A stretch of 9,220 nucleotides of DNA from a virus. Lineage: Duplodnaviria > Heunggongvirae > Uroviricota > Caudoviricetes. Position numbers and translations under genes: made by a program. The stretch spans positions 1 to 9,220 of IMG/VR virus record IMGVR_UViG_3300039367_000033; one strand, given 5' to 3'. The notes under the pieces were generated by a model. The model did not search any database. It was not told the DNA's origin and saw only the letters and a program-made list of their open reading frames with translations. Below are positions 1-9,220 of the stretch, piece after piece; positions within the stretch are counted from its first letter, which is position 1; each line of letters opens with the position of its first letter.

Positions 1-186
1 CAAATTGGAACTTCTCAATGGCTTAACACCCATCAACAAGAAGCCTTCATATCCCACACTTTTAGAACCCAGTTTTTTAACACTGCTCAATTCATGTGGC
101 AACAGCAAACCTTGTCACGTCCAATTAGCCGGAAGGACTGTGCTCAATTTGTCACAGTTCGCTTTCTTAATTCTGGAGGTCAATGA
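1..186 (+). CDS. 3' end of an upstream gene running in from the left edge (partial, product unknown)
   Basis: Frame 1 is open from nt 1 to a TGA at 184-186 that overlaps the ATG at 186-188 of the ABC ATPase gene (TGATG). A second frame (5..199) is also open, so the frame choice is uncertain. AT-rich like the 5' part of the following gene. Confidence 0.3.
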   Translation, partial: QIGTSQWLNTHQQEAFISHTFRTQFFNTAQFMWQQQTLSRPISRKDCAQFVTVRFLNSGGQ

Positions 187-1094
187 TGACACTACTTGAC
201 ATAAATCATGTGGACTACTGTTACAACGAAGGAACGTCACCTACTATTCATAACATTAGTCTAACTGTCTGTCCGAATTCAACAACTGTCATTATAGGTC
301 CTTCAGGCATTGGCAAGACCACATTATTAAACTTGATCGCCGGTTATCTAAAACCCAGTCAAGGAACTTTAACCATGAACGGCAAATCAATAACAGGGCC
401 ATCTTGGAAGCGCGGCGTTGTTTTTCAAACAATGGCTCTTTATCCTTGGTTAAATGTCCGTGATAACATTTTGTTTGGTCCAAAAATGCGTCATCAATCT
501 TCAGACGATTTTACCATGCTATTAGAAAAAGCTGGATTAACTCATTATGTTAATCGCCCAATTTATACACTCTCAGGTGGTCTGAAACAACGCGTTGCCC
601 TTGTTCGCGCGTTCATCAACCATCCTCCGTTACTCATGTTAGATGAATCGTTTGGAGCTCTAGATAACCATACACGGGCAGAGATGCATACACTATTGTT
701 TGATCTCTGGCGTGCTACTCAAAATGCTATGATTATCATCACTCATGATATTGATGAGGCGCTACGGCTGGCAGAACATCTGGTATTGATGGATCACGGT
801 GAAGTGGTGCAGCAGGGCAATCCGCTGACGATGCTGACTCGTCCGGCGAATGATTTTGTTCGCCAGTTTTTTGGACGTAGTGAACTGGGTGTGCGCCTGC
901 TTTCGTTACGTAGTGTGGCGGATTACGTGCGTCGCGAAGAACGTGCAGAAGGTGAGGCACTGGCAGAAGAGATGACGCTACGCGATGCGCTCTCCCTGTT
1001 TGTCGCGCGGGGATGCGAGGTGCTGCCGGTGATGAACACGCAGGGCCAGCCTTGCGGCACGCTGCATTTTCAGGATCTGCTGGTGGAGGCGTAA
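186..1094 (+). CDS. yehX: ABC transporter ATP-binding protein: C-terminal ~115 aa look like the YehX/OpuCA-type tail ([11 protein letters not shown] plus a CBS-like region); N-terminal nucleotide-binding domain is AT-rich and looks TauB/SsuB-like
   Basis: ORF 183..1094. GGAGG at 175-179 sits 6 nt before the ATG at 186, so 186 is preferred over 183. Walker [11 protein letters not shown]-loop VVFQ, signature LSGGLKQR, Walker [14 protein letters not shown]-loop ITHD. Followed 4 nt later by a permease gene. Symbol applies to the 3' portion only; the gene appears mosaic. Confidence 0.8.
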
Positions 1095-1098
1095 ACGT

Positions 1099-1830
1099 AT
1101 GAAGATGTTGCGCGATCCGCTGTTCTGGCTCATTGCTCTGTTTGTGGCACTGATTTTCTGGCTGCCTTACAGCCAGCCGCTGTTTGCTGCCTTGTTCCCA
1201 CAACTGCCACGCCCCGTTTATCAGCAAGAGAGTTTTGCAGCTCTGGCACTGGCTCATTTCTGGCTGGTGGGAATTTCGAGTTTGTTTGCGGTGATCATTG
1301 GTACTGGTGCCGGAATTGCTGTCACTCGCCCTTGGGGCGCGGAATTTCGTCCACTGGTGGAAACTATTGCCGCCGTTGGACAGACTTTTCCGCCCGTTGC
1401 AGTGCTGGCGATTGCCGTTCCGGTGATCGGCTTTGGCCTGCAACCGGCGATTATCGCCTTGATCCTTTACGGTGTGCTACCCGTCCTGCAGGCGACACTT
1501 GCCGGGCTGGGATCGATTGATGCCAGCGTGACCGAAGTTGCCAAAGGCATGGGAATGAGTCGTGGTCAGCGACTGCGTAAGGTCGAGCTACCGCTGGCGG
1601 CTCCGGTGATTCTGGCGGGCGTGCGAACTTCGGTGATTATCAACATTGGTACGGCGACGATCGCCTCAACGGTAGGGGCCAGCACGCTGGGTACGCCCAT
1701 CATCATCGGGCTTAGCGGATTTAATACCGCGTATGTGATCCAGGGGGCGTTACTGGTGGCACTGGCGGCGATCATCGCAGACCGCCTGTTTGAAAGGCTG
1801 GTGCAGGCGTTCAGCCAGCACGCAAAATAA
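1099..1830 (+). CDS. yehW: ABC transporter permease of the osmoprotectant (OsmF-YehYXW) system
   Basis: 243-aa strongly hydrophobic protein with multiple predicted membrane spans, directly downstream of the ATPase gene; GGAGG upstream of the ATG; GC-rich enterobacterial codon usage. Confidence 0.88.
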
Positions 1831-1918
1831 AGGTATAACCTGCGAGCATGACGCCACCAATTCCGCCTAACGCCATAAACAGGAACAGGGCGATGACTCC
1901 AATTTTAGCTATGCGCAT
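1811..1918 (-). CDS. yohO: small membrane protein, 35 aa ([35 protein letters not shown]), YohO-like
   Basis: ATG at 1916-1918 (minus) preceded by AAGGAG with 7-nt spacing; single hydrophobic helix; TGA at 1811-1813; overlaps the yehW 3' end by 20 nt on the opposite strand. Not in the ORF track because it is short. Name is from memory of the K-12 locus. Confidence 0.55.
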
Positions 1919-1977
1919 AATGCACTCCTTATGTTAACGAAAGGATTGTACAGTAAAGCGCATTTGTTAACGAATCA

Positions 1978-2664
1978 TTAAATGCCGAGTGGGAAAATAT
2001 CATGGCCTTGTTCCTGCCAACTGGTGAGTTGCTGCTGTTGGGCGGAGGTTCGATTTTCACCGCACCACACCAGCAATGTACGGCCTTCGAACAGTTCAGG
2101 GCGTAGTTGATTGAGCGAGTGGGCGAGGACATCAATGCGCCATCCTTGTTGACTGGCAATCCAGCCCTCCAGCCACAGACGGGTGGTATCCTGAATATTC
2201 CAGCCAACCACCAGCGCATCTTTACCCTGTTTTTTACGTGCCGAAGCCAGACAAATGGCAATGTAGTTGATCAGTACGCCGTCGAGGATCGCCAGCAGCG
2301 CCTGGAGAGTCGGTTGTTGGCACTGAAGCCGTCGGCGCAGTGGAATGAACAGATGTGTGGTGAGTGTCTGGGCGGGGTAATCCTGACCGCGCTCTTTGAT
2401 CCACGTTCGCAGGCTATGCAGATTGCCGCTTTGCAGGTAAGTCAGTAATGTTTCTTGCTGATCGCGCCAGCCGTTCTGCACATCAACATTTTCATTACTG
2501 AGCAGCATTTTTACTTTGCTGACCTGCACGCCATTGTCGATCCAGCGTTTGATCTCGCGGATCCGGTCAATATCGGCATCGTTGAACAGCCGATGACCGC
2601 CGTCTGTCCGTTGCGGTTTCAGCAATCCGTAACGCCTCTGCCACGCGCGTAACGTGACAGGGAT
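1978..2664 (-). pseudogene. mlrA: mlrA (yehV) MerR-family regulator of csgD/curli, 5'-truncated by prophage insertion
   Basis: Minus-strand frame encodes ...PVTLRAWQRRYGLLKPQRTDGGHRLFNDADIDRIREIKRWIDNGVQ... through to TAA at 1978-1980. Upstream of about nt 2664 the frame reads SVSLPLI and hits a stop at 2695-2697 with no ATG or GTG; the only start in frame is an internal TTG at 2623-2625. From memory, intact MlrA begins MALYTIGEVALLCDINPVTLRAW, so the first HTH helix is missing. Confidence 0.8.
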
Positions 2665-2699
2665 TAAGGGTAAACTAACTGATTTTACAAGTTTTTATT

Positions 2700-3986
2700 T
2701 TACCCCACTTTCTTATGGGGCATACATGGGACACTTTCAGATAGTCTTTTGTTAAGGAGTTCTATCTGTTCGTGATTGTTGTCTTTCATCCATGCTCCGT
2801 AAACATTGAATACCATTTGTGCGTTTGTGTGGCCCATCTGGCTTGCGATAAAACTAGGATTAGCTCCAGCGGCAAGTGACCAGCATGCATAAGTATGCCT
2901 GGATTGGTACGATTTTCTGTGTCTCAGACCTGCGCGTTTTAAGATACTTGTCCATGACTCCCTGATGGAGTCAACCTTATAGTGCGGTCCGGAAAACTGC
3001 CGCTGTTTTATTACCTGAGGACTAAAAACAAAAGTGCATTTATGCACAGTACTTCTCCCATATTCCCTCTGCTTTACCTCTACAGAATGTTGCTTTCCAA
3101 GCATGGTCATTTCCGCCTGACTTTTAAGAGCATCAATAGCTGGTTGAACCAGATGAATTGTCCTTCCGGTGCCAGCATCGGTTTTTGGTGGAGTGAATTC
3201 GCCAAGTTTTGTATAATTCCTACGGATGGTTATAGTCCTTGCTTTAAGATCTATATCTTCCCATGCCAGCGATACCAGCTCCCCGTGACGAATACCCGTG
3301 TATACAGCGAGAATCCACAGGTTTTTTGTTTGTTGATGACGGCAAGCCTCAATAAAACGAATAAATTCGTCACGGGTGAGAGGATCTGGTTTTACCTTGG
3401 ACTTTTTTAAGGGTGCCAGACCGTTAAATGGGTTTCCTGAGGTATAACCATTATCTGTTGCAAATTGAAACATTCCAGCTATGGTTGTCATATAGTAGTT
3501 TACTGTGACCACTGAGCGCCCTTTTATGGAAGAAATCTTTCCATTAGAAAGCTTTTGGTAACCGGTCAACAAATCTCTCCTTGCGAAAAGTAAATCCTCT
3601 TTTGTTATGGATGAAACCAGTTTTTTCTCACCCAACATAGGCAACATGTTTTTAATTACTGACTGGTAACGATTAAGTGCATTCGCACAAATCTCAATTT
3701 TCTTAAGGTCCAACCATTTTTCCGAAAGTGCCTTAACGGTTATCTCTCTTTTTCCCAGACCAAAGTGTTTCAGGTTAGGGGAATTAGGGAACTGTGTGGC
3801 GTAGTCGAAACTCCCCATTCTGATTGCAAAACAAACGGAAGTGCGAAGTTCACCTGCGATCTTCCGGTTTTTGGCGGTGTCAGGAACACCGAGGTTTTCT
3901 CTGACACGTTTGCCATTATAGTGAAACCATATACGGAGTGATCCTCCATGGTTTTCAACGCCTGTCGGGTATGATACGTTACTCAT
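2700..3986 (-). CDS. int: phage integrase, tyrosine recombinase family (428 aa)
   Basis: ORF 2700..3986 with ATG at 3984-3986 and GGGAGG upstream. C-terminal catalytic-type motifs (LRHRKSYQSRHTY ... MGHTNAQMVFNVYGAW with a candidate active-site Tyr). Position next to the chromosome junction is typical of int next to attL. Confidence 0.93.
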   Translation of the reverse strand: MSNVSYPTGVENHGGSLRIWFHYNGKRVRENLGVPDTAKNRKIAGELRTSVCFAIRMGSFDYATQFPNSPNLKHFGLGKREITVKALSEKWLDLKKIEICANALNRYQSVIKNMLPMLGEKKLVSSITKEDLLFARRDLLTGYQKLSNGKISSIKGRSVVTVNYYMTTIAGMFQFATDNGYTSGNPFNGLAPLKKSKVKPDPLTRDEFIRFIEACRHQQTKNLWILAVYTGIRHGELVSLAWEDIDLKARTITIRRNYTKLGEFTPPKTDAGTGRTIHLVQPAIDALKSQAEMTMLGKQHSVEVKQREYGRSTVHKCTFVFSPQVIKQRQFSGPHYKVDSIRESWTSILKRAGLRHRKSYQSRHTYACWSLAAGANPSFIASQMGHTNAQMVFNVYGAWMKDNNHEQIELLNKRLSESVPCMPHKKVG

Positions 3987-4019
3987 TAAACCTCCCAGAC
4001 GTCCAGGAGCATTAACAGG

Positions 4020-4274
4020 TTAACCGGAACTTGCATTTTTGGCACCTGGTTGTTTCTGGTTTTCGATCCATCGCATAATTTCTTCGATGTTGTACAGGCA
4101 TTCACTGTAATGCCCAGGATCACCTTCTACAGCGTAATGGCGGTATTCTTTTCCCTGCATCCATGACTTTCTCCTGGCCCGCTCGATGGTGCCGGGCTTT
4201 AGCCCTGTTGATGCAATAAGGACTCTCTCCGTACACCATTTGCTGGGGGTTATCTGATAGATGATTGTCTGCAT
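4020..4274 (-). CDS. excisionase-like / small DNA-binding protein (84 aa)
   Basis: Immediately upstream of int in the same orientation (33-nt gap); ATG at 4272-4274 with GAGG 5 nt upstream; small basic protein with a W...R...G..EY pattern loosely resembling lambda Xis. Function inferred mostly from position. Confidence 0.55.
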   Translation of the reverse strand: MQTIIYQITPSKWCTERVLIASTGLKPGTIERARRKSWMQGKEYRHYAVEGDPGHYSECLYNIEEIMRWIENQKQPGAKNASSG

Positions 4275-4292
4275 GCCAACCTCATAAAACTT

Positions 4293-4427
4293 TCATCCAC
4301 GGCAGTGGCACCACACGTCAAACATTCGCTTCACAACTTCACGACAGTAGAAACCGTCACCATCTTGCGTCAGGTCATAGCGATTGCCGTAACGCTGGTG
4401 GACCCATCGTTCAAATGCTTTATTCAT
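4293..4427 (-). CDS. hypothetical small protein, 44 aa (MNKAFERWVHQRYGNRYDLTQDGDGFYCREVVKRMFDVWCHCRG)
   Basis: Not in the ORF track. ATG at 4425-4427 preceded by AAGGAAG, 3 nt after the TAA of the upstream gene; fills the gap between the 80-aa gene and the xis-like gene; ends TGA at 4293-4295. Confidence 0.45.
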   Translation of the reverse strand: MNKAFERWVHQRYGNRYDLTQDGDGFYCREVVKRMFDVWCHCRG

Positions 4428-4430
4428 TCT

Positions 4431-4673
4431 TTACTTCCTTTTTATGGCTCGTAATTTTTTCAGGTGCTTTTCCTGCTCAGTATCCGCGAGAATTTTGCGG
4501 TACTCCTGGTGGTCAATATGTTCGAACAGGCTGTTGAACTCAGTGATGCGTACCCGCCCGGAGCGCCCGTCCATCCTCCGAAAGAATACCGAGTGAACAG
4601 TACTGCGAGTAATTTTTACCGGGTAGCCAGCACTATCGGTGTATATCTGCCCGCGTTGAATCAAAGCGAACAT
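4431..4673 (-). CDS. hypothetical phage protein (80 aa)
   Basis: ORF 4431..4709 begins with TTG; the internal ATG at 4671-4673 (MFALIQRG...) is preferred because the TTG extension would overlap the coupled 27-aa ORF upstream. Basic C-terminus (KHLKKLRAIKRK). Confidence 0.6.
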   Translation of the reverse strand: MFALIQRGQIYTDSAGYPVKITRSTVHSVFFRRMDGRSGRVRITEFNSLFEHIDHQEYRKILADTEQEKHLKKLRAIKRK

Positions 4674-4677
4674 GTGG

Positions 4678-4761
4678 TTATCCCCATCGACAAATCGAGA
4701 ACACAACAAACGCTGCTGCGAATACCACCCCCAGAGTTACGATTGCATCAGGCCAGCTCAT
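4678..4761 (-). CDS. small hydrophobic peptide, 27 aa (MSWPDAIVTLGVVFAAAFVVFSICRWG), probable single-pass membrane peptide
   Basis: Not in the ORF track. ATG at 4759-4761 overlaps the TGA of the DUF551-like gene (ATGA); strong AGGAGG 7 nt upstream; TAA at 4678-4680 is 4 nt before the ATG of the next gene. Confidence 0.4.
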   Translation of the reverse strand: MSWPDAIVTLGVVFAAAFVVFSICRWG

Positions 4762-5303
4762 TGATTCACCTCCTGCGGCGGTTCTGGCAGCGGCATCCAG
4801 TGGGTTACCTCCTTGAGATACAGGTCTTCGCCATCACCGTCATCCCAAGTGGGCTTGCCATCATTAAACCAGTCGCCATATACGCCGACCTGAGTGTTGG
4901 GGATGTTTGGTGGGTAGTTGTTTTTAAAGTCAGCAGCTAACACATAGCATTGTCGCTCTCCCATTTCTGGCATTCGCTCACTACAGCTTATCCAACTCTC
5001 CGGAGTTACCGGAGAGTTGCCAGCCTCATACGCCACACGCATCCAGTGCATAAGCGTTTCAGTGCTCACACAGCCGCAATCAACATCAATTTTGCCGTGC
5101 TGCTGTTCCAGCCATTGCTCAAAAGTTAACTTGTAAGTTTGGCTTACAGGTTCTGCACTATCAGCTTCGCGCCGCTTCTGTAGCTCTGCTGCCATCGCTC
5201 TCACGACTTCAACTGGTGCCCTTGCCGCAAACTCTATGTTGGTGATCAGCTCATTAAGATATTGCTCGCCTGGATACTGTTTCTTATCGGTTATAGTGGT
5301 CAT
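4758..5303 (-). CDS. DUF551-domain phage protein (181 aa)
   Basis: C-terminal region WISCSERMPEMGERQCYVL...VTHWMPLPEPP matches the DUF551 pattern as I recall it (W-I-S-x-x-D/E-R-L-P ... T-H-W-M-P-L-P-E-P-P). ATG at 5301-5303 overlaps the upstream TGA (ATGA); GAAGGA upstream. Confidence 0.75.
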   Translation of the reverse strand: MTTITDKKQYPGEQYLNELITNIEFAARAPVEVVRAMAAELQKRREADSAEPVSQTYKLTFEQWLEQQHGKIDVDCGCVSTETLMHWMRVAYEAGNSPVTPESWISCSERMPEMGERQCYVLAADFKNNYPPNIPNTQVGVYGDWFNDGKPTWDDGDGEDLYLKEVTHWMPLPEPPQEVNQ

Positions 5304-5815
5304 GCTGCGTTTCCTTCTTTCTTATTAACAATTACACCGTCATATATTTCATTAAGGTGTCCTCTTAGCTCCATGCGCCTTAATGCAGATAACATGTAAT
5401 CGCATTCAACCTGCTTATTCCCAGTAAATGGCTTATCGTCAGAATTACCCCAACAGCAATTACCCCTGGGCCATCCATGTACTTTCCGTACTCTTCCGTT
5501 AACAACGTGAAGTAATCCCCAGCCGGGAGGTAAATCCTCAACTGAAATAATTTCCGGCTCACTAATAAAGAATCGCCAGTCGCCCATGCCAAGTGAGGGA
5601 TTTTTACGGAAACGCTTTTTTCTATCTGCCAACAAGTCAGCACGAGAACACTTCGCCTCTATCAGGCATGATGCTGAATTTCTGAATCCCATAGCATCTG
5701 GCTGTTCTCCGGTACTGGTTACAGCAACAAAGCGGTCATGAAAGCAAACCTTGAACCCGTTGCGCTTAAGGAACTTGTACGCAATCTGACAGAGTTCGTG
5801 GTGTGTTAACGCCAT
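5300..5815 (-). CDS. putative PD-(D/E)xK nuclease-like phage protein (171 aa)
   Basis: ATG at 5813-5815 preceded by AAGGAGAG (junction motif copy 1). Motif GEQPDAMGF...CLIEAKCSRADLL fits the PD...E-x-K signature of restriction-endonuclease-like / VRR-NUC folds. The TTG-extended ORF 5300..5875 is rejected. Family assignment is by eye. Confidence 0.7.
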   Translation of the reverse strand: MALTHHELCQIAYKFLKRNGFKVCFHDRFVAVTSTGEQPDAMGFRNSASCLIEAKCSRADLLADRKKRFRKNPSLGMGDWRFFISEPEIISVEDLPPGWGLLHVVNGRVRKVHGWPRGNCCWGNSDDKPFTGNKQVECDYMLSALRRMELRGHLNEIYDGVIVNKKEGNAA

Positions 5816-5816
5816 A

Positions 5817-6257
5817 TCACTCTCCTTTCCCATGAAGCATGGCGGCGCGGCAGGCGTTCCATATTTCGGCAGCAATATCGCGCTCGCTATCGGTTAATTT
5901 GTACGTGGAAACATAGCCAGAGAGCATTTCTACGTTTTCCGGAGTTGCTTCTTCCGGCACTACCGGCGCTGGCAAGGCAGCGTGATAGTAGAGTGGCATA
6001 GTTTTGTACAGTGGTTCGCCAGGACTTCCGTCAACCTGATTCCATTCTTCAACCCAGGCATCAACAACCGCTTTGCTGGTTGATACATGTTCTTCTGAAT
6101 CTACATTTTGTCCTGATATACAGAACATAACTGCTTCTGCTTCCAGCGATGCCAGTGCGATTTCATAAGCCCGACGCTCAATATTGTCTCGGACGTCCAG
6201 GCTGCCTATACGCTCTTTGATTTCTTTAATCAGTTCTTTGTCGGTTAAAGTGGTCAT
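5817..6257 (-). CDS. hypothetical phage protein (146 aa, acidic, ends KGE)
   Basis: ATG at 6255-6257 with GAGGA upstream, overlapping the TGA of the upstream gene (ATGA). N-terminus MTTLTDK resembles that of the DUF551-like protein (MTTITDK). Confidence 0.75.
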   Translation of the reverse strand: MTTLTDKELIKEIKERIGSLDVRDNIERRAYEIALASLEAEAVMFCISGQNVDSEEHVSTSKAVVDAWVEEWNQVDGSPGEPLYKTMPLYYHAALPAPVVPEEATPENVEMLSGYVSTYKLTDSERDIAAEIWNACRAAMLHGKGE

Positions 6258-6463
6258 TTGTTAATCCTCAAAACTTTATGCCCGGGCGCAAAAGCACGCG
6301 TTTTGTCTTTGCTTATTCGCCAGCCATCCTTGCGCGCCTCTTTTGCACAACCAGACCATGACGTACCGATATACTCACCGAAGTCTGGCGACTTATATTT
6401 GCCATCTGTACACTGGAGGCAGTCACAATAGAGATGCATGGTGTAACTTGCGGCAATAGCCAT
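6254..6463 (-). CDS. small Cys-rich protein (69 aa; CDCLQC...C...H, possible zinc-binding)
   Basis: ATG at 6461-6463 preceded by the exact junction motif AAAGGAGAGTGATATGGC (copy 2). The TTG-extended ORF 6254..6535 is rejected. Confidence 0.7.
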   Translation of the reverse strand: MAIAASYTMHLYCDCLQCTDGKYKSPDFGEYIGTSWSGCAKEARKDGWRISKDKTRAFAPGHKVLRINK

Positions 6464-6464
6464 A

Positions 6465-6659
6465 TCACTCTCCTTTAGTGCGCAAATGGTTTTTCCAGCG
6501 GTTTTGCGCCGCGCTGGGCTTTTTGCAAAAACCACAATCCATCATCCCGTAATATTTCATCAACCCCATCCGTCGGTTGCTGAGTCTCACCCACTGCCAG
6601 ACGCCAGGAGCGTTTCTACGAACTAACAGAATCTTTGCTTTACGGTTGTTGGTTGCCAT
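6465..6659 (-). CDS. small basic protein (64 aa, ends KGE)
   Basis: ATG at 6657-6659 preceded by the exact junction motif (copy 3); TGA at 6465-6467. Confidence 0.7.
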   Translation of the reverse strand: MATNNRKAKILLVRRNAPGVWQWVRLSNRRMGLMKYYGMMDCGFCKKPSAAQNRWKNHLRTKGE

Positions 6660-6660
6660 A

Positions 6661-7260
6661 TCACTCTCCTTTGATGCGAATGCCAGCGACGCGTAATGCG
6701 TGTTCTAGGTCAATCAGGTAAAGCCAACTGCCATTTTCTTTAGGTATCATGACATGTCGCTCATCTGCATTTATCGGGTGTCCATATCGAAGGTCGTAGC
6801 GAGTCGGTAATTGAACTTCCCGCGCTTCCAGTTCAGCAATACGCTTGCACCCATCAGAGATAACTCCCTCGTAATACTCGCGCTGCTCGTTGAGTTTTGA
6901 TTTTGCTGCTTCAAGCTCAACGAGCAGCTTCCCAACCGTAAGCGCAATATCCTCGTTCTCCTGGTCGCGGCGTTTGATGTATTGCTGGTTTCTTTCCTGT
7001 TCATCCAGCAGTGCCAGCACGGTAGCCGGGTTAGCCTCTGCTATGAATTCAGCGTTTGCATAAGCCTGAGCATCTGATTCAATCAGGCAGTTAACATGAC
7101 ATTCCGCAATCACGCCACCGGGTTCTCCTTTCCATTTTTGACAAACAAAAACTCCTGTTAAATTGCCGTGCTGGTTAACAGATGTATGCCCTACGATGTA
7201 GCTTCCTTTAGTTGCTTTCTCTGCCTTTTCACGCAGTGCCTGATAGTTAATCTCGCTCAC
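6661..7260 (-). CDS. Ea22-like early phage protein, paralog 1 (199 aa)
   Basis: GTG start at 7258-7260 overlapping the upstream TGA (GTGA), GGAGGA upstream. N-terminal MSEINYQALREKAEKAT... and ANAEFIAEANPATVLALLDE resemble ead/Ea22-like proteins as I recall them; central region has coiled-coil character; ends KGE. Confidence 0.75.
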   Translation of the reverse strand: MSEINYQALREKAEKATKGSYIVGHTSVNQHGNLTGVFVCQKWKGEPGGVIAECHVNCLIESDAQAYANAEFIAEANPATVLALLDEQERNQQYIKRRDQENEDIALTVGKLLVELEAAKSKLNEQREYYEGVISDGCKRIAELEAREVQLPTRYDLRYGHPINADERHVMIPKENGSWLYLIDLEHALRVAGIRIKGE

Positions 7261-7481
7261 TCTTCATCCTCCAAGTCGGCAACGGCGTCCATCACATCAG
7301 AACCGCGAATAACCTCAAAAGCACGGCAGGCCATTTGAAATACCAGTTGCTCTTGCGGGTGAGGAGACTCCCAATATTTGAAGCCTGGGCGATGCGTGTA
7401 CCCCATCATTGAATAAAAATCACCAGCAAGCTTAATCGCGGCATCGACAAGCTCTCTGTTAGTCATTCTTTTTCCGCTCAC
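7257..7481 (-). CDS. hypothetical small acidic protein (74 aa; 69 aa if the internal ATG at 7464-7466 is used)
   Basis: GTG at 7479-7481 overlaps the upstream TGA (GTGA), with AAGGAGG 6 nt upstream; same junction architecture as at 8702-8720. Confidence 0.65.
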   Translation of the reverse strand: MSGKRMTNRELVDAAIKLAGDFYSMMGYTHRPGFKYWESPHPQEQLVFQMACRAFEVIRGSDVMDAVADLEDEE

Positions 7482-8065
7482 TGGTTGCCTCCTTTGCGAA
7501 GCTGGGCGGCTAACTCATCACATATGTGCGTCAAAGAACAAAGTTTGATTGATGGATGTTCGCGCATCATCTCTACCCCCTGCGCCCGCACTTCAGACAG
7601 GAAAGCATCGGTGGCTGGCATATTTCCTGTTGCCTTCATTGCTTCCAAAATAACCAGAACGCCATCTCGCCCAATCTCCTCGCAGATAACCTCGGTGCTG
7701 TCGCCAACAACATCGCAAAATGCCTGAACTGCTTTACGAGCCAGCGCATTCTCCGCCACCAGCGCCGCGAGATTAGTCTCAAGCTCTGCAATTCGACACA
7801 TAGCATCAATATTTGTGTCCTCCAGGCGCTTAATTTCACCAAGCAGCTCCAGTGCAACCTTTGGGTTGAACGCGGCAACATGACGAGCGTTGTTCTCTGC
7901 ATTTTTCTGTCCATCAAAGCCGGTCCATTTGATAACGTCTTCACATCGTTCATCACCGGGCGTGTGCACCGCATAAGTACCAGTATCCGTCGAAATAAAT
8001 GCGACCCATTCGTCTGGTGTTGCCTTTTCTGCCGCCTCACGCAGTACCTGATAGTCAATTGTCAT
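7478..8065 (-). CDS. Ea22-like early phage protein, paralog 2 (195 aa; 198 aa if the ATG at 8072-8074 is used)
   Basis: N-terminus MTIDYQVLREAAEKAT and NARHVAAFNPKVALELLGE align with paralog 1. ATG at 8063-8065 overlaps the upstream TGA (ATGA), with AAGGA 8 nt upstream. Confidence 0.75.
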   Translation of the reverse strand: MTIDYQVLREAAEKATPDEWVAFISTDTGTYAVHTPGDERCEDVIKWTGFDGQKNAENNARHVAAFNPKVALELLGEIKRLEDTNIDAMCRIAELETNLAALVAENALARKAVQAFCDVVGDSTEVICEEIGRDGVLVILEAMKATGNMPATDAFLSEVRAQGVEMMREHPSIKLCSLTHICDELAAQLRKGGNQ

Positions 8066-8706
8066 TCTCGCCATCCTTCACAGTTGTAATCACTACAGCC
8101 TTCAAAATCATATGGGCTGTACTGCCAGGTTATTTTTCCGCAATGCGGACAATTCCAACGCACCTTCCCGCTTCGCGACTTCTTTCTTCTGTTCTGCTCT
8201 TTCAACCAGTCAGGCATGACCAAACCTGCGCCCTGAACCATTGTTCTGCGGTTAAAGTTATTGATATTGAACGTCCGGCGCTTTGCTGCATCAGCAATGG
8301 AAAATGGCAACCAAACTATTCCTGGTTCGTTTTTGTTGGCGACGCTAAAGATGGTCGCTTTACTGAAGTCATCTGTTGGCAATCCACCGTGTTGAAGCCA
8401 GTAAACATCATTGCCGTTCCAGCTACCTTTTTTGTAGGCCACATACGCAGTGCAATCTGACTCAATCAGGCTTTCTGTAGGGATGTACTGGCAATCAACG
8501 TGCCACACTGCCATTGCATCCACGCTATCCGCGCAAACAGGCTGATCGATATCTCGCCCACAATTCCAGGCTTTTTGGGCTTCTTCCAGCGTGTAAACAT
8601 GAGCGCGATCGATATCAGAACTGTAACCATTGCCGTTATGGCAATGGAATGAGGCGTTATTACCCACAGTTTCACGCAAGCACATCATGTAAAAACGGTT
8701 ACTCAC
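8062..8706 (-). CDS. hypothetical Cys/His-rich phage protein with C-terminal zinc-ribbon-like motif (214 aa)
   Basis: GTG at 8704-8706 overlaps the upstream TGA (GTGA), AAGGAGG 6 nt upstream; C-terminal CPHC-(x16)-CSDYNC; the longer TTG-initiated ORF 8062..8742 is rejected. No family recognised. Confidence 0.7.
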   Translation of the reverse strand: MSNRFYMMCLRETVGNNASFHCHNGNGYSSDIDRAHVYTLEEAQKAWNCGRDIDQPVCADSVDAMAVWHVDCQYIPTESLIESDCTAYVAYKKGSWNGNDVYWLQHGGLPTDDFSKATIFSVANKNEPGIVWLPFSIADAAKRRTFNINNFNRRTMVQGAGLVMPDWLKEQNRRKKSRSGKVRWNCPHCGKITWQYSPYDFEGCSDYNCEGWRE

Positions 8707-8942
8707 TGGATGCCTCCTTGGTGGAGTTGCGCTGCGATGCACGAAAAAAAAGACTCCCGTGTATGACTGTTAAGAGCTGGTGCGAACGCCTCGTTAAGAA
8801 CGGCGGCATCACAGCCGTCATCAATATAGAGCGCAATTTTTTTCTCCAGGCGCGCTTTGGCTTCCTGCAACTGCATACCCCGGCACGCACGCGGGATATA
8901 ATCAGCAATTTGAGCGATAGCTTTTTCGTTCTGTTTAAACAT
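8703..8942 (-). CDS. hypothetical phage protein (79 aa)
   Basis: ATG at 8940-8942 with GAGGTG upstream; overlaps the upstream gene end by 8 nt (ATGTTTAA). Confidence 0.65.
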   Translation of the reverse strand: MFKQNEKAIAQIADYIPRACRGMQLQEAKARLEKKIALYIDDGCDAAVLNEAFAPALNSHTRESFFSCIAAQLHQGGIQ

Positions 8943-9138
8943 GCTTCACCTCGATAGGCTTGATGGTGTCTAACAGCAGTCGGCGGCGCGTATTTTCTGC
9001 AAAATGGCGGCGTCCAGTTTCTTTGTGGTAAAACTCGTTTTTGCCAACGACCCACATCCGCTTTGTCTGGTGCAGTTTTTTTACCTGCGGACCGTCTCGG
9101 GTGATAACAATTCCTGTATGAGTTTTTATCACGCTCAT
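8935..9138 (-). CDS. hypothetical basic phage protein (67 aa)
   Basis: ATG at 9136-9138 overlaps a TGA that closes an open frame entering from the right window edge (ATGA); no clear SD, so expression probably depends on coupling. Confidence 0.6.
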   Translation of the reverse strand: MSVIKTHTGIVITRDGPQVKKLHQTKRMWVVGKNEFYHKETGRRHFAENTRRRLLLDTIKPIEVKHV

Positions 9139-9220
9139 TTTTTATTCTTCGGTGCTTTCGGCATTACTGCCCAGTGAGTGATATTGACGTTTTCAAGGTC
9201 CCCGACCTGAAATGTCCACA
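9135..9220 (-). CDS. 3' end of a further phage gene entering from the right edge (partial)
   Basis: A minus-strand frame is open from the window edge to TGA at 9135-9137 (...VGDLENVNITHWAVMPKAPKNKK*). A second frame is open to a TAA at 9164-9166, so the frame choice is uncertain. Confidence 0.3.
   Translation of the reverse strand, partial: WTFQVGDLENVNITHWAVMPKAPKNKK

Follow-up and report, generated by a model that had tools for sequence, protein, structure and literature searches.

A lambdoid prophage junction in the mlrA (yehV) gene of Escherichia coli, with base-level coordinates for its attachment core

Introduction

The 9,220-nucleotide stretch considered here (positions 1 to 9,220 of the IMG/VR virus record IMGVR_UViG_3300039367_000033, referred to throughout as the window) carries most of mlrA (yehV), which encodes a regulator that activates csgD, directly beside a phage integrase gene, and thus raises the question of how the beginning of the regulator was lost and whether what remains could still function. 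The original prediction, made from the sequence alone, was that a prophage had integrated into the 5' end of mlrA and removed the start of the regulator. Our analysis supports that account with a probability of about 0.95: window positions 2642-2662 very likely represent attL, the junction on one side of a lambdoid prophage whose integrase belongs to the VT1-Sakai (Sp15)/BP-4795/JLK-2012 family and which is integrated site-specifically in mlrA. Both the presence of prophages in mlrA/yehV and what this does to curli and biofilm are already established for O157:H7 and other E. coli that make Shiga toxin (STEC), and we claim no new biology here; the practical gain lies in base-exact attachment (att) coordinates for this window.

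Results

The att core lies in mlrA codons 16/17 to 23

To locate the junction, we aligned the window with an uninterrupted mlrA gene (Combat13F7) and with the far prophage end in AF3 (NZ_OZ547117.1, from a human blood isolate); in the window, mlrA, the integrase gene (int), the excisionase gene (xis), and the phage open reading frames (ORFs) are all read on the minus strand. At attB, Combat13F7 reads GATATTAATCCTGTCACGTTACGCGCGTG followed by GCAGAGG; at attL, the window reads ACCCTTAATCCCTGTCACGTTACGCGCGTG followed by the same GCAGAGG; and at attR, AF3 reads GATATTAACCCTGTCACGTTACGCGCGTG followed by ACGCAAC. A single core, CCTGTCACGTTACGCGCGTG, is common to the attB, attL, attR, and attP alignments and falls at window 2642-2661. 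On the plus strand the attL core reads CACGCGCGTAACGTGACAGG(G), and in mlrA orientation CCCTGTCACGTTACGCGCGTG, spanning the gene from the third base of codon 16 to codon 23. The DNA match to uninterrupted mlrA loci stops at 2661/2662, and 5 further nucleotides (TTAAT) can be aligned only with a 1-nucleotide gap. The alignment to an intact locus suggested in the original prediction thus fixes the core at 2642-2661/2662, and published annotation agrees with it: the 20-nucleotide "attachment site" feature of VT1-Sakai (AP000400) equals window 2642-2661, and the annotated 21-nucleotide attL of JLK-2012 (JQ347801) equals window 2642-2662.

Whether the core counts 20 or 21 nucleotides is set by a synonymous choice at codon 16 (Asn16, window 2662), with AAC giving 21. 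The AAT and AAC alleles are both common among uninterrupted mlrA genes; because intact attB sites with AAC are common, the T-to-C difference at Asn16 in attR is ordinary polymorphism, and it was discarded as a marker of the crossover. The same codon provides the one observation in favor of a different explanation, namely that the divergence upstream of residue 17 is a polymorphism between strains or a minor rearrangement within mlrA. The upstream DNA is unrelated to mlrA: the spacer at 2663-2699 bears no relation to attB, is identical or near-identical to the phage P arm in VT1-Sakai, JLK-2012, and phi330, and is followed by int and xis. The divergence is therefore a recombination junction, and we judge the polymorphism explanation extremely improbable.

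Further features of a recombination site surround the core. Two copies of the motif ATGGGRCA, 11 nucleotides apart, lie inside the 3' end of int and are its sole matches in the window. On the opposite arm, on the DinI side of attR in AF3 (locus L004, 1109-1138), three more copies occur with the same spacing and orientation, and the repeat family is also found in attP of phi330, whose genome supplies both phage arms flanking the core. The attP core contains a dyad symmetry centered on CGCGCG. We read the repeats and the dyad as candidate arm-type and core-type integrase-binding sites. The deposited "complete genome" of phage vB_EcoS_phi330 (PV189401.1; locus L006, 381-420) contains the 20-nucleotide core twice in tandem, which looks like a join of prophage-derived attL and attR sequences instead of a true attP.

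The far end of a prophage at this site is visible in the related genome AF3, where attR lies approximately 49 kb from attL, adjoins btsS, and carries a copy of the core. There, the upstream (promoter) region of mlrA and its codons 1-22 run directly into TGA.

The adjoining integrase and excisionase belong to the VT1-Sakai family

As predicted, one end of a prophage is present in the window, with int, xis, and the att core next to one another. The integrase carries the Pfam domains Arm-DNA-bind_2 and Phage_integrase and is identical to the VT1-Sakai integrase at 418 of 428 amino acids (98%), while the 84-amino-acid protein encoded beside it matches Pfam DUF1233, a putative excisionase family, and its counterparts in VT1-Sakai, JLK-2012, and AF3 carry the annotation xis. 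Over the module of int, xis, and junction (window 2600-4300), identity is 97.5-98.9% to JLK-2012, VT1-Sakai, YYZ-2008, BP-4795, Stx2a_1447/WGPS2, phi330, and PhiR5_1. Two hallmarks of the VT1-Sakai/Sp15 type at yehV, the integrase lineage and an att core at codons 17-23 with the P arm on the integrase side, are found here; a third, the attR copy of the core beside the 5' end and promoter of mlrA, is seen in AF3. These matches bear out the statement that yehV/mlrA is a known site for lambdoid and Shiga toxin (Stx) prophages.

The junction recurs in 458 complete genomes

We searched 5,426 complete E. coli genomes with a 1.1-kb query spanning the junction. The query matched 5,424 of them; the match continued into the integrase in 458 (about 8%), and in almost all others it ended at window ~2667, with a 1-nucleotide gap allowed. 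An uninterrupted mlrA site was present in 4,944 genomes. Besides STEC, the carriers of the junction included human blood isolates. In addition, three E. coli assemblies (L012, L014, and L015, with OZ039802 as the exact-match chromosome) match window 739-9220 at 100% identity.

These counts bear directly on the concern that the junction of mlrA and int might be an assembly artefact, a concern that arises from the left end of the window, which is itself chimeric. Window 1-763 has a GC content of 40%, matches metagenome contigs (Logan SRR13259373_24111 and ENA ERZ1742327 NODE_2596) at 99.9% identity, and has no counterpart in complete E. coli genomes. It encodes the N-terminal 185 amino acids of an ABC ATPase of the taurine type, for which the nearest named relatives, in Lactobacillaceae, reach at most 57% amino acid identity; no close homologue of this protein was found among GTDB representative genomes, where the best match was 35% identical. 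A 25-nucleotide identical stretch at 739-763 (TCACTCATGATATTGATGAGGCGCT), within the H-loop motif, links this foreign segment in frame with yehX of E. coli. Neither JGI metagenome contigs nor GTDB representative genomes contain the 55-mer across that join, and no record of the chimeric protein was found. Most likely the left end is an assembly chimera from a mixed sample, and it serves as a warning about the provenance of the window. The mlrA junction is a separate matter: it is reproduced base for base in the 458 complete genomes and in the VT1-Sakai and JLK-2012 records with their annotated att sites, and it lies within the part of the window matched exactly by three independent assemblies. 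Because it is independently attested in this way, the chimeric left end leaves it unaffected, and the recurrence in complete genomes and published prophage records effectively excludes an artefact, just as it does the polymorphism explanation discussed above; we would give an artefact about one chance in a hundred.

The insertion removes the start of the DNA-binding domain

Downstream of the junction, the regulator is intact. Codons 17-243 occupy window 2661-1981 on the minus strand, with the stop codon at 1980-1978, and residues 17-243 are identical in 227 of 227 positions to MlrA of an uninterrupted strain. The original prediction had the frame intact from about residue 20 to its stop; the intactness holds, and the native sequence resumes slightly earlier than proposed, at Pro17. 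Translated in the mlrA frame, the minus strand gives K, a stop, and then KLVKSVSLPLIPVTLRAWQRRYG, also written as K, a stop, and then KLVKSVSLPLIPVTLRAWQRRYGLLKPQ. The spacer at 2663-2699 takes the place of mlrA codons 1-16 and holds both an in-frame TAA (2697-2695) and an ATC triplet (2664-2662); a second in-frame stop lies at 2715-2713. Between the TAA and the TTG at 2625-2623, the mlrA frame contains no ATG, GTG, or TTG, such that this TTG, with AGAGG 9 nucleotides upstream, is the earliest canonical start in the fragment. The predicted upstream stop and missing start codon are thereby borne out. The int stop codon is at 2702-2700, leaving 37 nucleotides (2663-2699) between it and the att core, or 35 to the start at 2664 used in one annotation (see below); the 36 nucleotides given originally were about right. 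Since int and mlrA lie in different frames, a fusion protein is impossible, and this candidate, which the intervening stops also oppose, was rejected.

The consequences for the protein follow from its domain structure. Pfam finds full-length matches to MlrA_helical and MlrA_C in the fragment; for MerR_1, the match covers only profile positions 16-68 of 69. Alignments to solved MerR-family and CarH structures place the beginning of the MerR-type helix-turn-helix (HTH) of MlrA at residues 3-4. The insertion therefore deprives mlrA of its promoter and start codon, and the protein of helix 1 and the residue with which the recognition helix begins. Of the features that a functional MlrA would require, the intact helical and C-terminal domains are present, the native residues 1-16 that begin the N-terminal MerR-type HTH are missing, and so are mlrA's native promoter and a canonical start preceded by a ribosome-binding site, the DNA upstream of the fragment being int. 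In agreement with the original prediction, the regulator has thus lost its start and been parted from its promoter.

Automated annotation paints a different picture of the fragment. The Prokaryotic Genome Annotation Pipeline (PGAP) calls a 228-amino-acid "HTH-type transcriptional regulator MlrA" in AF3 from an ATC start at 2664 (WP_042101647.1; window 1978-2664, L001 3079-3765) and a 233-amino-acid MlrA in ERL06-2497 from an ATT start (WP_027868261.1; L077 379-1080), whereas other gene callers give 215 amino acids from TTG 2625. We found no purine-rich Shine-Dalgarno sequence upstream of ATC 2664-2662, and none before the ATT start of ERL06-2497. We treat the ATC and ATT starts as homology-driven choices that provide no evidence of a functional protein. 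A start restored by phage sequence, which would have spoken against the original account, is accordingly represented only by these noncanonical, PGAP-chosen codons. Because RefSeq/PGAP calls the interrupted gene a normal MlrA, surveys of gene presence and absence would overlook the interruption.

A functional MlrA fragment is unlikely

Loss of the beginning of the HTH and of the promoter would be expected to reduce curli, cellulose, and biofilm. In the mechanism that we favor, a tyrosine recombinase very probably carried out site-specific recombination into its usual target, the 20-21-bp core in mlrA codons 16/17-23; as the sequence shows, mlrA is untouched from Pro17 to the stop, and its 16 N-terminal codons are exchanged for phage DNA with an in-frame stop and no canonical start. 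From published work and knowledge of the family, loss of helix 1, the start of helix 2 of the HTH, and the promoter would then abolish MlrA-dependent activation of csgD, and curli, cellulose, and biofilm would fall in turn. Integrase and excisionase together could excise the prophage precisely and rebuild mlrA. These expectations parallel experiments in which a prophage in mlrA broke the DNA-binding motif and reduced curli, biofilm, and Congo-red binding, and in which prophage excision brought back native mlrA (PMC5931665); the original remark that such insertions are reported to lower curli and biofilm formation is thus substantiated. The same insertion occurs in some non-O157 STEC, where a plasmid carrying mlrA rescued Congo-red binding and curli in 2 of 4 strains (PMC3874044).

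One must nevertheless ask whether an N-terminally altered MlrA, of 228 (from ATC 2664) or 215 amino acids (from TTG 2625), might be made by read-through from int and still regulate curli. A consensus scan of the minus strand found no terminator-like site between int and the fragment, which makes read-through transcription plausible as judged from the sequence, and read-through from int or the pL promoter could transcribe the distal mlrA fragment. (A hairpin of 5-8 bp that spans the int stop codon was considered as a terminator and rejected: it folds, but no U-run accompanies it, and neither VT1-Sakai nor JLK-2012 conserves the stem.) The non-pseudogene calls in AF3 and ERL06-2497 and the AGAGG ahead of TTG 2625 also fit a translated product. 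Published data can be read in both directions. Run-off transcription of distal mlrA rose ~62-fold by quantitative reverse transcription PCR at 30 degrees C with sulfamethoxazole-trimethoprim (SMX-TM), and recombinant truncated MlrA forms restored some Congo-red binding; however, they did not restore biofilm, csgD showed no rise upon induction of the fragment, and DNA binding by it was considered unlikely (PMC5931665). Against a working regulator, moreover, stand the rarity of ATC and ATT as initiators, here with no preceding Shine-Dalgarno sequence, and the absence of HTH helix 1 from both products, the 215-amino-acid form also lacking most of the recognition helix. We therefore regard a still functional gene as unlikely, and prefer the reading in which integration inactivates mlrA.

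A related and more speculative idea is that the promoterless fragment is not inert. The helical and C-terminal domains of MlrA, which remain intact here, presumably contact the DgcM/PdeR cyclic di-GMP module. On induction, read-through from int or pL might yield, from TTG 2625 for instance, a form of MlrA that lacks the HTH and modulates curli and biofilm signaling, making the choice of att site a two-state biofilm switch. We consider this scenario doubtful; if true, att-site choice would give the phage family, which ~8% of E. coli carry and which includes stx-less members, a biofilm switch that goes beyond a simple knockout.

Cargo and completeness of the prophage

The window takes in 6.5 kb of the prophage, which runs on beyond it, and as noted originally the window leaves the cargo of the element unshown. 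The interval downstream of Q and the tRNA cluster, where an stxAB operon would be expected, lies outside it. Beyond the part equivalent to the window, the element in the three exact-match assemblies proceeds with cI/cro-type, Rha, and replication genes. Other phages of the integrase family bear stx1a or stx2a. The annotation lists no stx gene for the AF3 prophage (L003; NZ_OZ547117.1, 168.7-218.0 kb), in which only ~490 bp lie between the tRNA cluster and a SASA-family esterase gene; its genes include three tRNAs, the SASA-family esterase, Lom, and DinI-like, PerC-family, and WYL-domain proteins. A link to Stx for the present prophage is possible and is not implied, as the integrase family includes stx-less prophages.

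In the AF3 prophage, moreover, an internal stop breaks the large terminase gene, the S49 protease gene is frameshifted, and several early genes are pseudogenes; this prophage is probably defective. These lesions raise a variant of the favored explanation in which the present element, too, is a defective or cryptic remnant and no inducible phage, such that the interruption of mlrA would be effectively permanent. Truncated prophages at yehV were reportedly described by Shaikh and Tarr in 2003, which is in line with such a remnant. In the window itself, however, int, xis, and every early-left ORF are open, and the defects of AF3, a mosaic relative, are not transferable to this prophage. We consider a remnant possible, with the odds against it.

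Layout of the window

Coordinates of the features discussed above and of the remaining genes in the window are collected in Table 1.

Table 1. Features of the 9,220-nucleotide window, with the basis for each assignment.
Feature	Position	Strand	Basis
ABC-ATPase gene	183-1094	+	
yehW	1099-1830	+	
yohO	1811-1918	-	
3' fragment of mlrA (yehV), codons 17-243 and stop	1978-2661	-	Identity to intact MlrA; Pfam
attL copy of the attachment core	2642-2662		attB/attL/attR alignment; VT1-Sakai and JLK-2012 att features
Phage P-arm spacer, core to int stop codon	2663-2699	-	P arm of VT1-Sakai, JLK-2012, and phi330
Tyrosine integrase, 428 aa	2700-3986	-	Pfam; identity to VT1-Sakai integrase
Two ATGGGRCA repeats, candidate arm-type integrase-binding sites	2715-2733	+	Inferred
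Excisionase, 84 aa	4020-4274	-	Pfam DUF1233, E 2e-29
Prophage early-left region: DUF4222, DUF551, Ead/Ea22-like, and unnamed genes	4275-9220	-	Pfam

No phage record covers at least 80% of window 4300-9220, and the early-left arm is therefore strongly mosaic; likewise, no record in the complete-genome set covers at least 80% of the whole window. Within window 4965-8720, parts (the Ead/Ea22-like gene and adjoining unnamed ORFs) are ~96.6% identical to segments of P1/P7-type plasmid-prophages and Stx2c phages.

Discussion

Taken at face value, several points weigh against the conclusion that mlrA has been interrupted by a site-specifically integrated prophage with the expected loss of function. 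The 6.5 kb of prophage in the window leave attR, completeness, and cargo outside it, and the far-end core with the mlrA 5' end was seen in a related genome, AF3, and not in the window. PGAP lists the fragment as a complete, non-pseudogene mlrA coding sequence. The chimeric left end must also be counted here, although the junction itself is unaffected by it. Finally, the reduced curli and biofilm expected for this sequence are extrapolated from published work on such insertions. We nevertheless hold to integration in mlrA as by far the most probable explanation of the locus. Beyond its coordinates, the junction is common outside classic STEC, and thus biofilm-negative phenotypes in such carriers may stem from this insertion.

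Comparison with known systems

The closest known counterparts are VT1-Sakai (Sp15) and CP-933V, the Stx1 prophages of O157:H7 in yehV/mlrA, with which target gene and position are alike. VT1-Sakai shares an identical 20-nucleotide att core, the 98% identical integrase, an equal layout of int, xis, and attL, and an equal P arm; it differs in the mosaic early-left region, where identity is ~89% over ~35% of window 4300-9220. JLK-2012 (from O55:H7 DEC5E), BP-4795, YYZ-2008, Stx2a_1447/WGPS2, phi330, and PhiR5_1 share the module of int, xis, and junction and differ in cargo and other modules, as is usual for lambdoid mosaics. The AF3 prophage is 100% identical to the window over 1900-3000, shares 99.8% identity with the exact-match locus L012 in the immunity region, and has both of its att junctions visible; in contrast, its early-left genes are distinct, and several of its genes are pseudogenes. 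It is a mosaic relative that differs in several segments.

With phage lambda, the present element has in common a tyrosine integrase whose N-terminal domain binds arm sites, an adjoining xis, a short dyad-symmetric core, and repeated arm-type sites on both arms, the latter being candidates in this phage family. The core and arm sequences of lambda are unrelated to those of this phage, and lambda inserts between gal and bio, where no gene is broken, whereas the integration described here strikes the coding sequence of mlrA.

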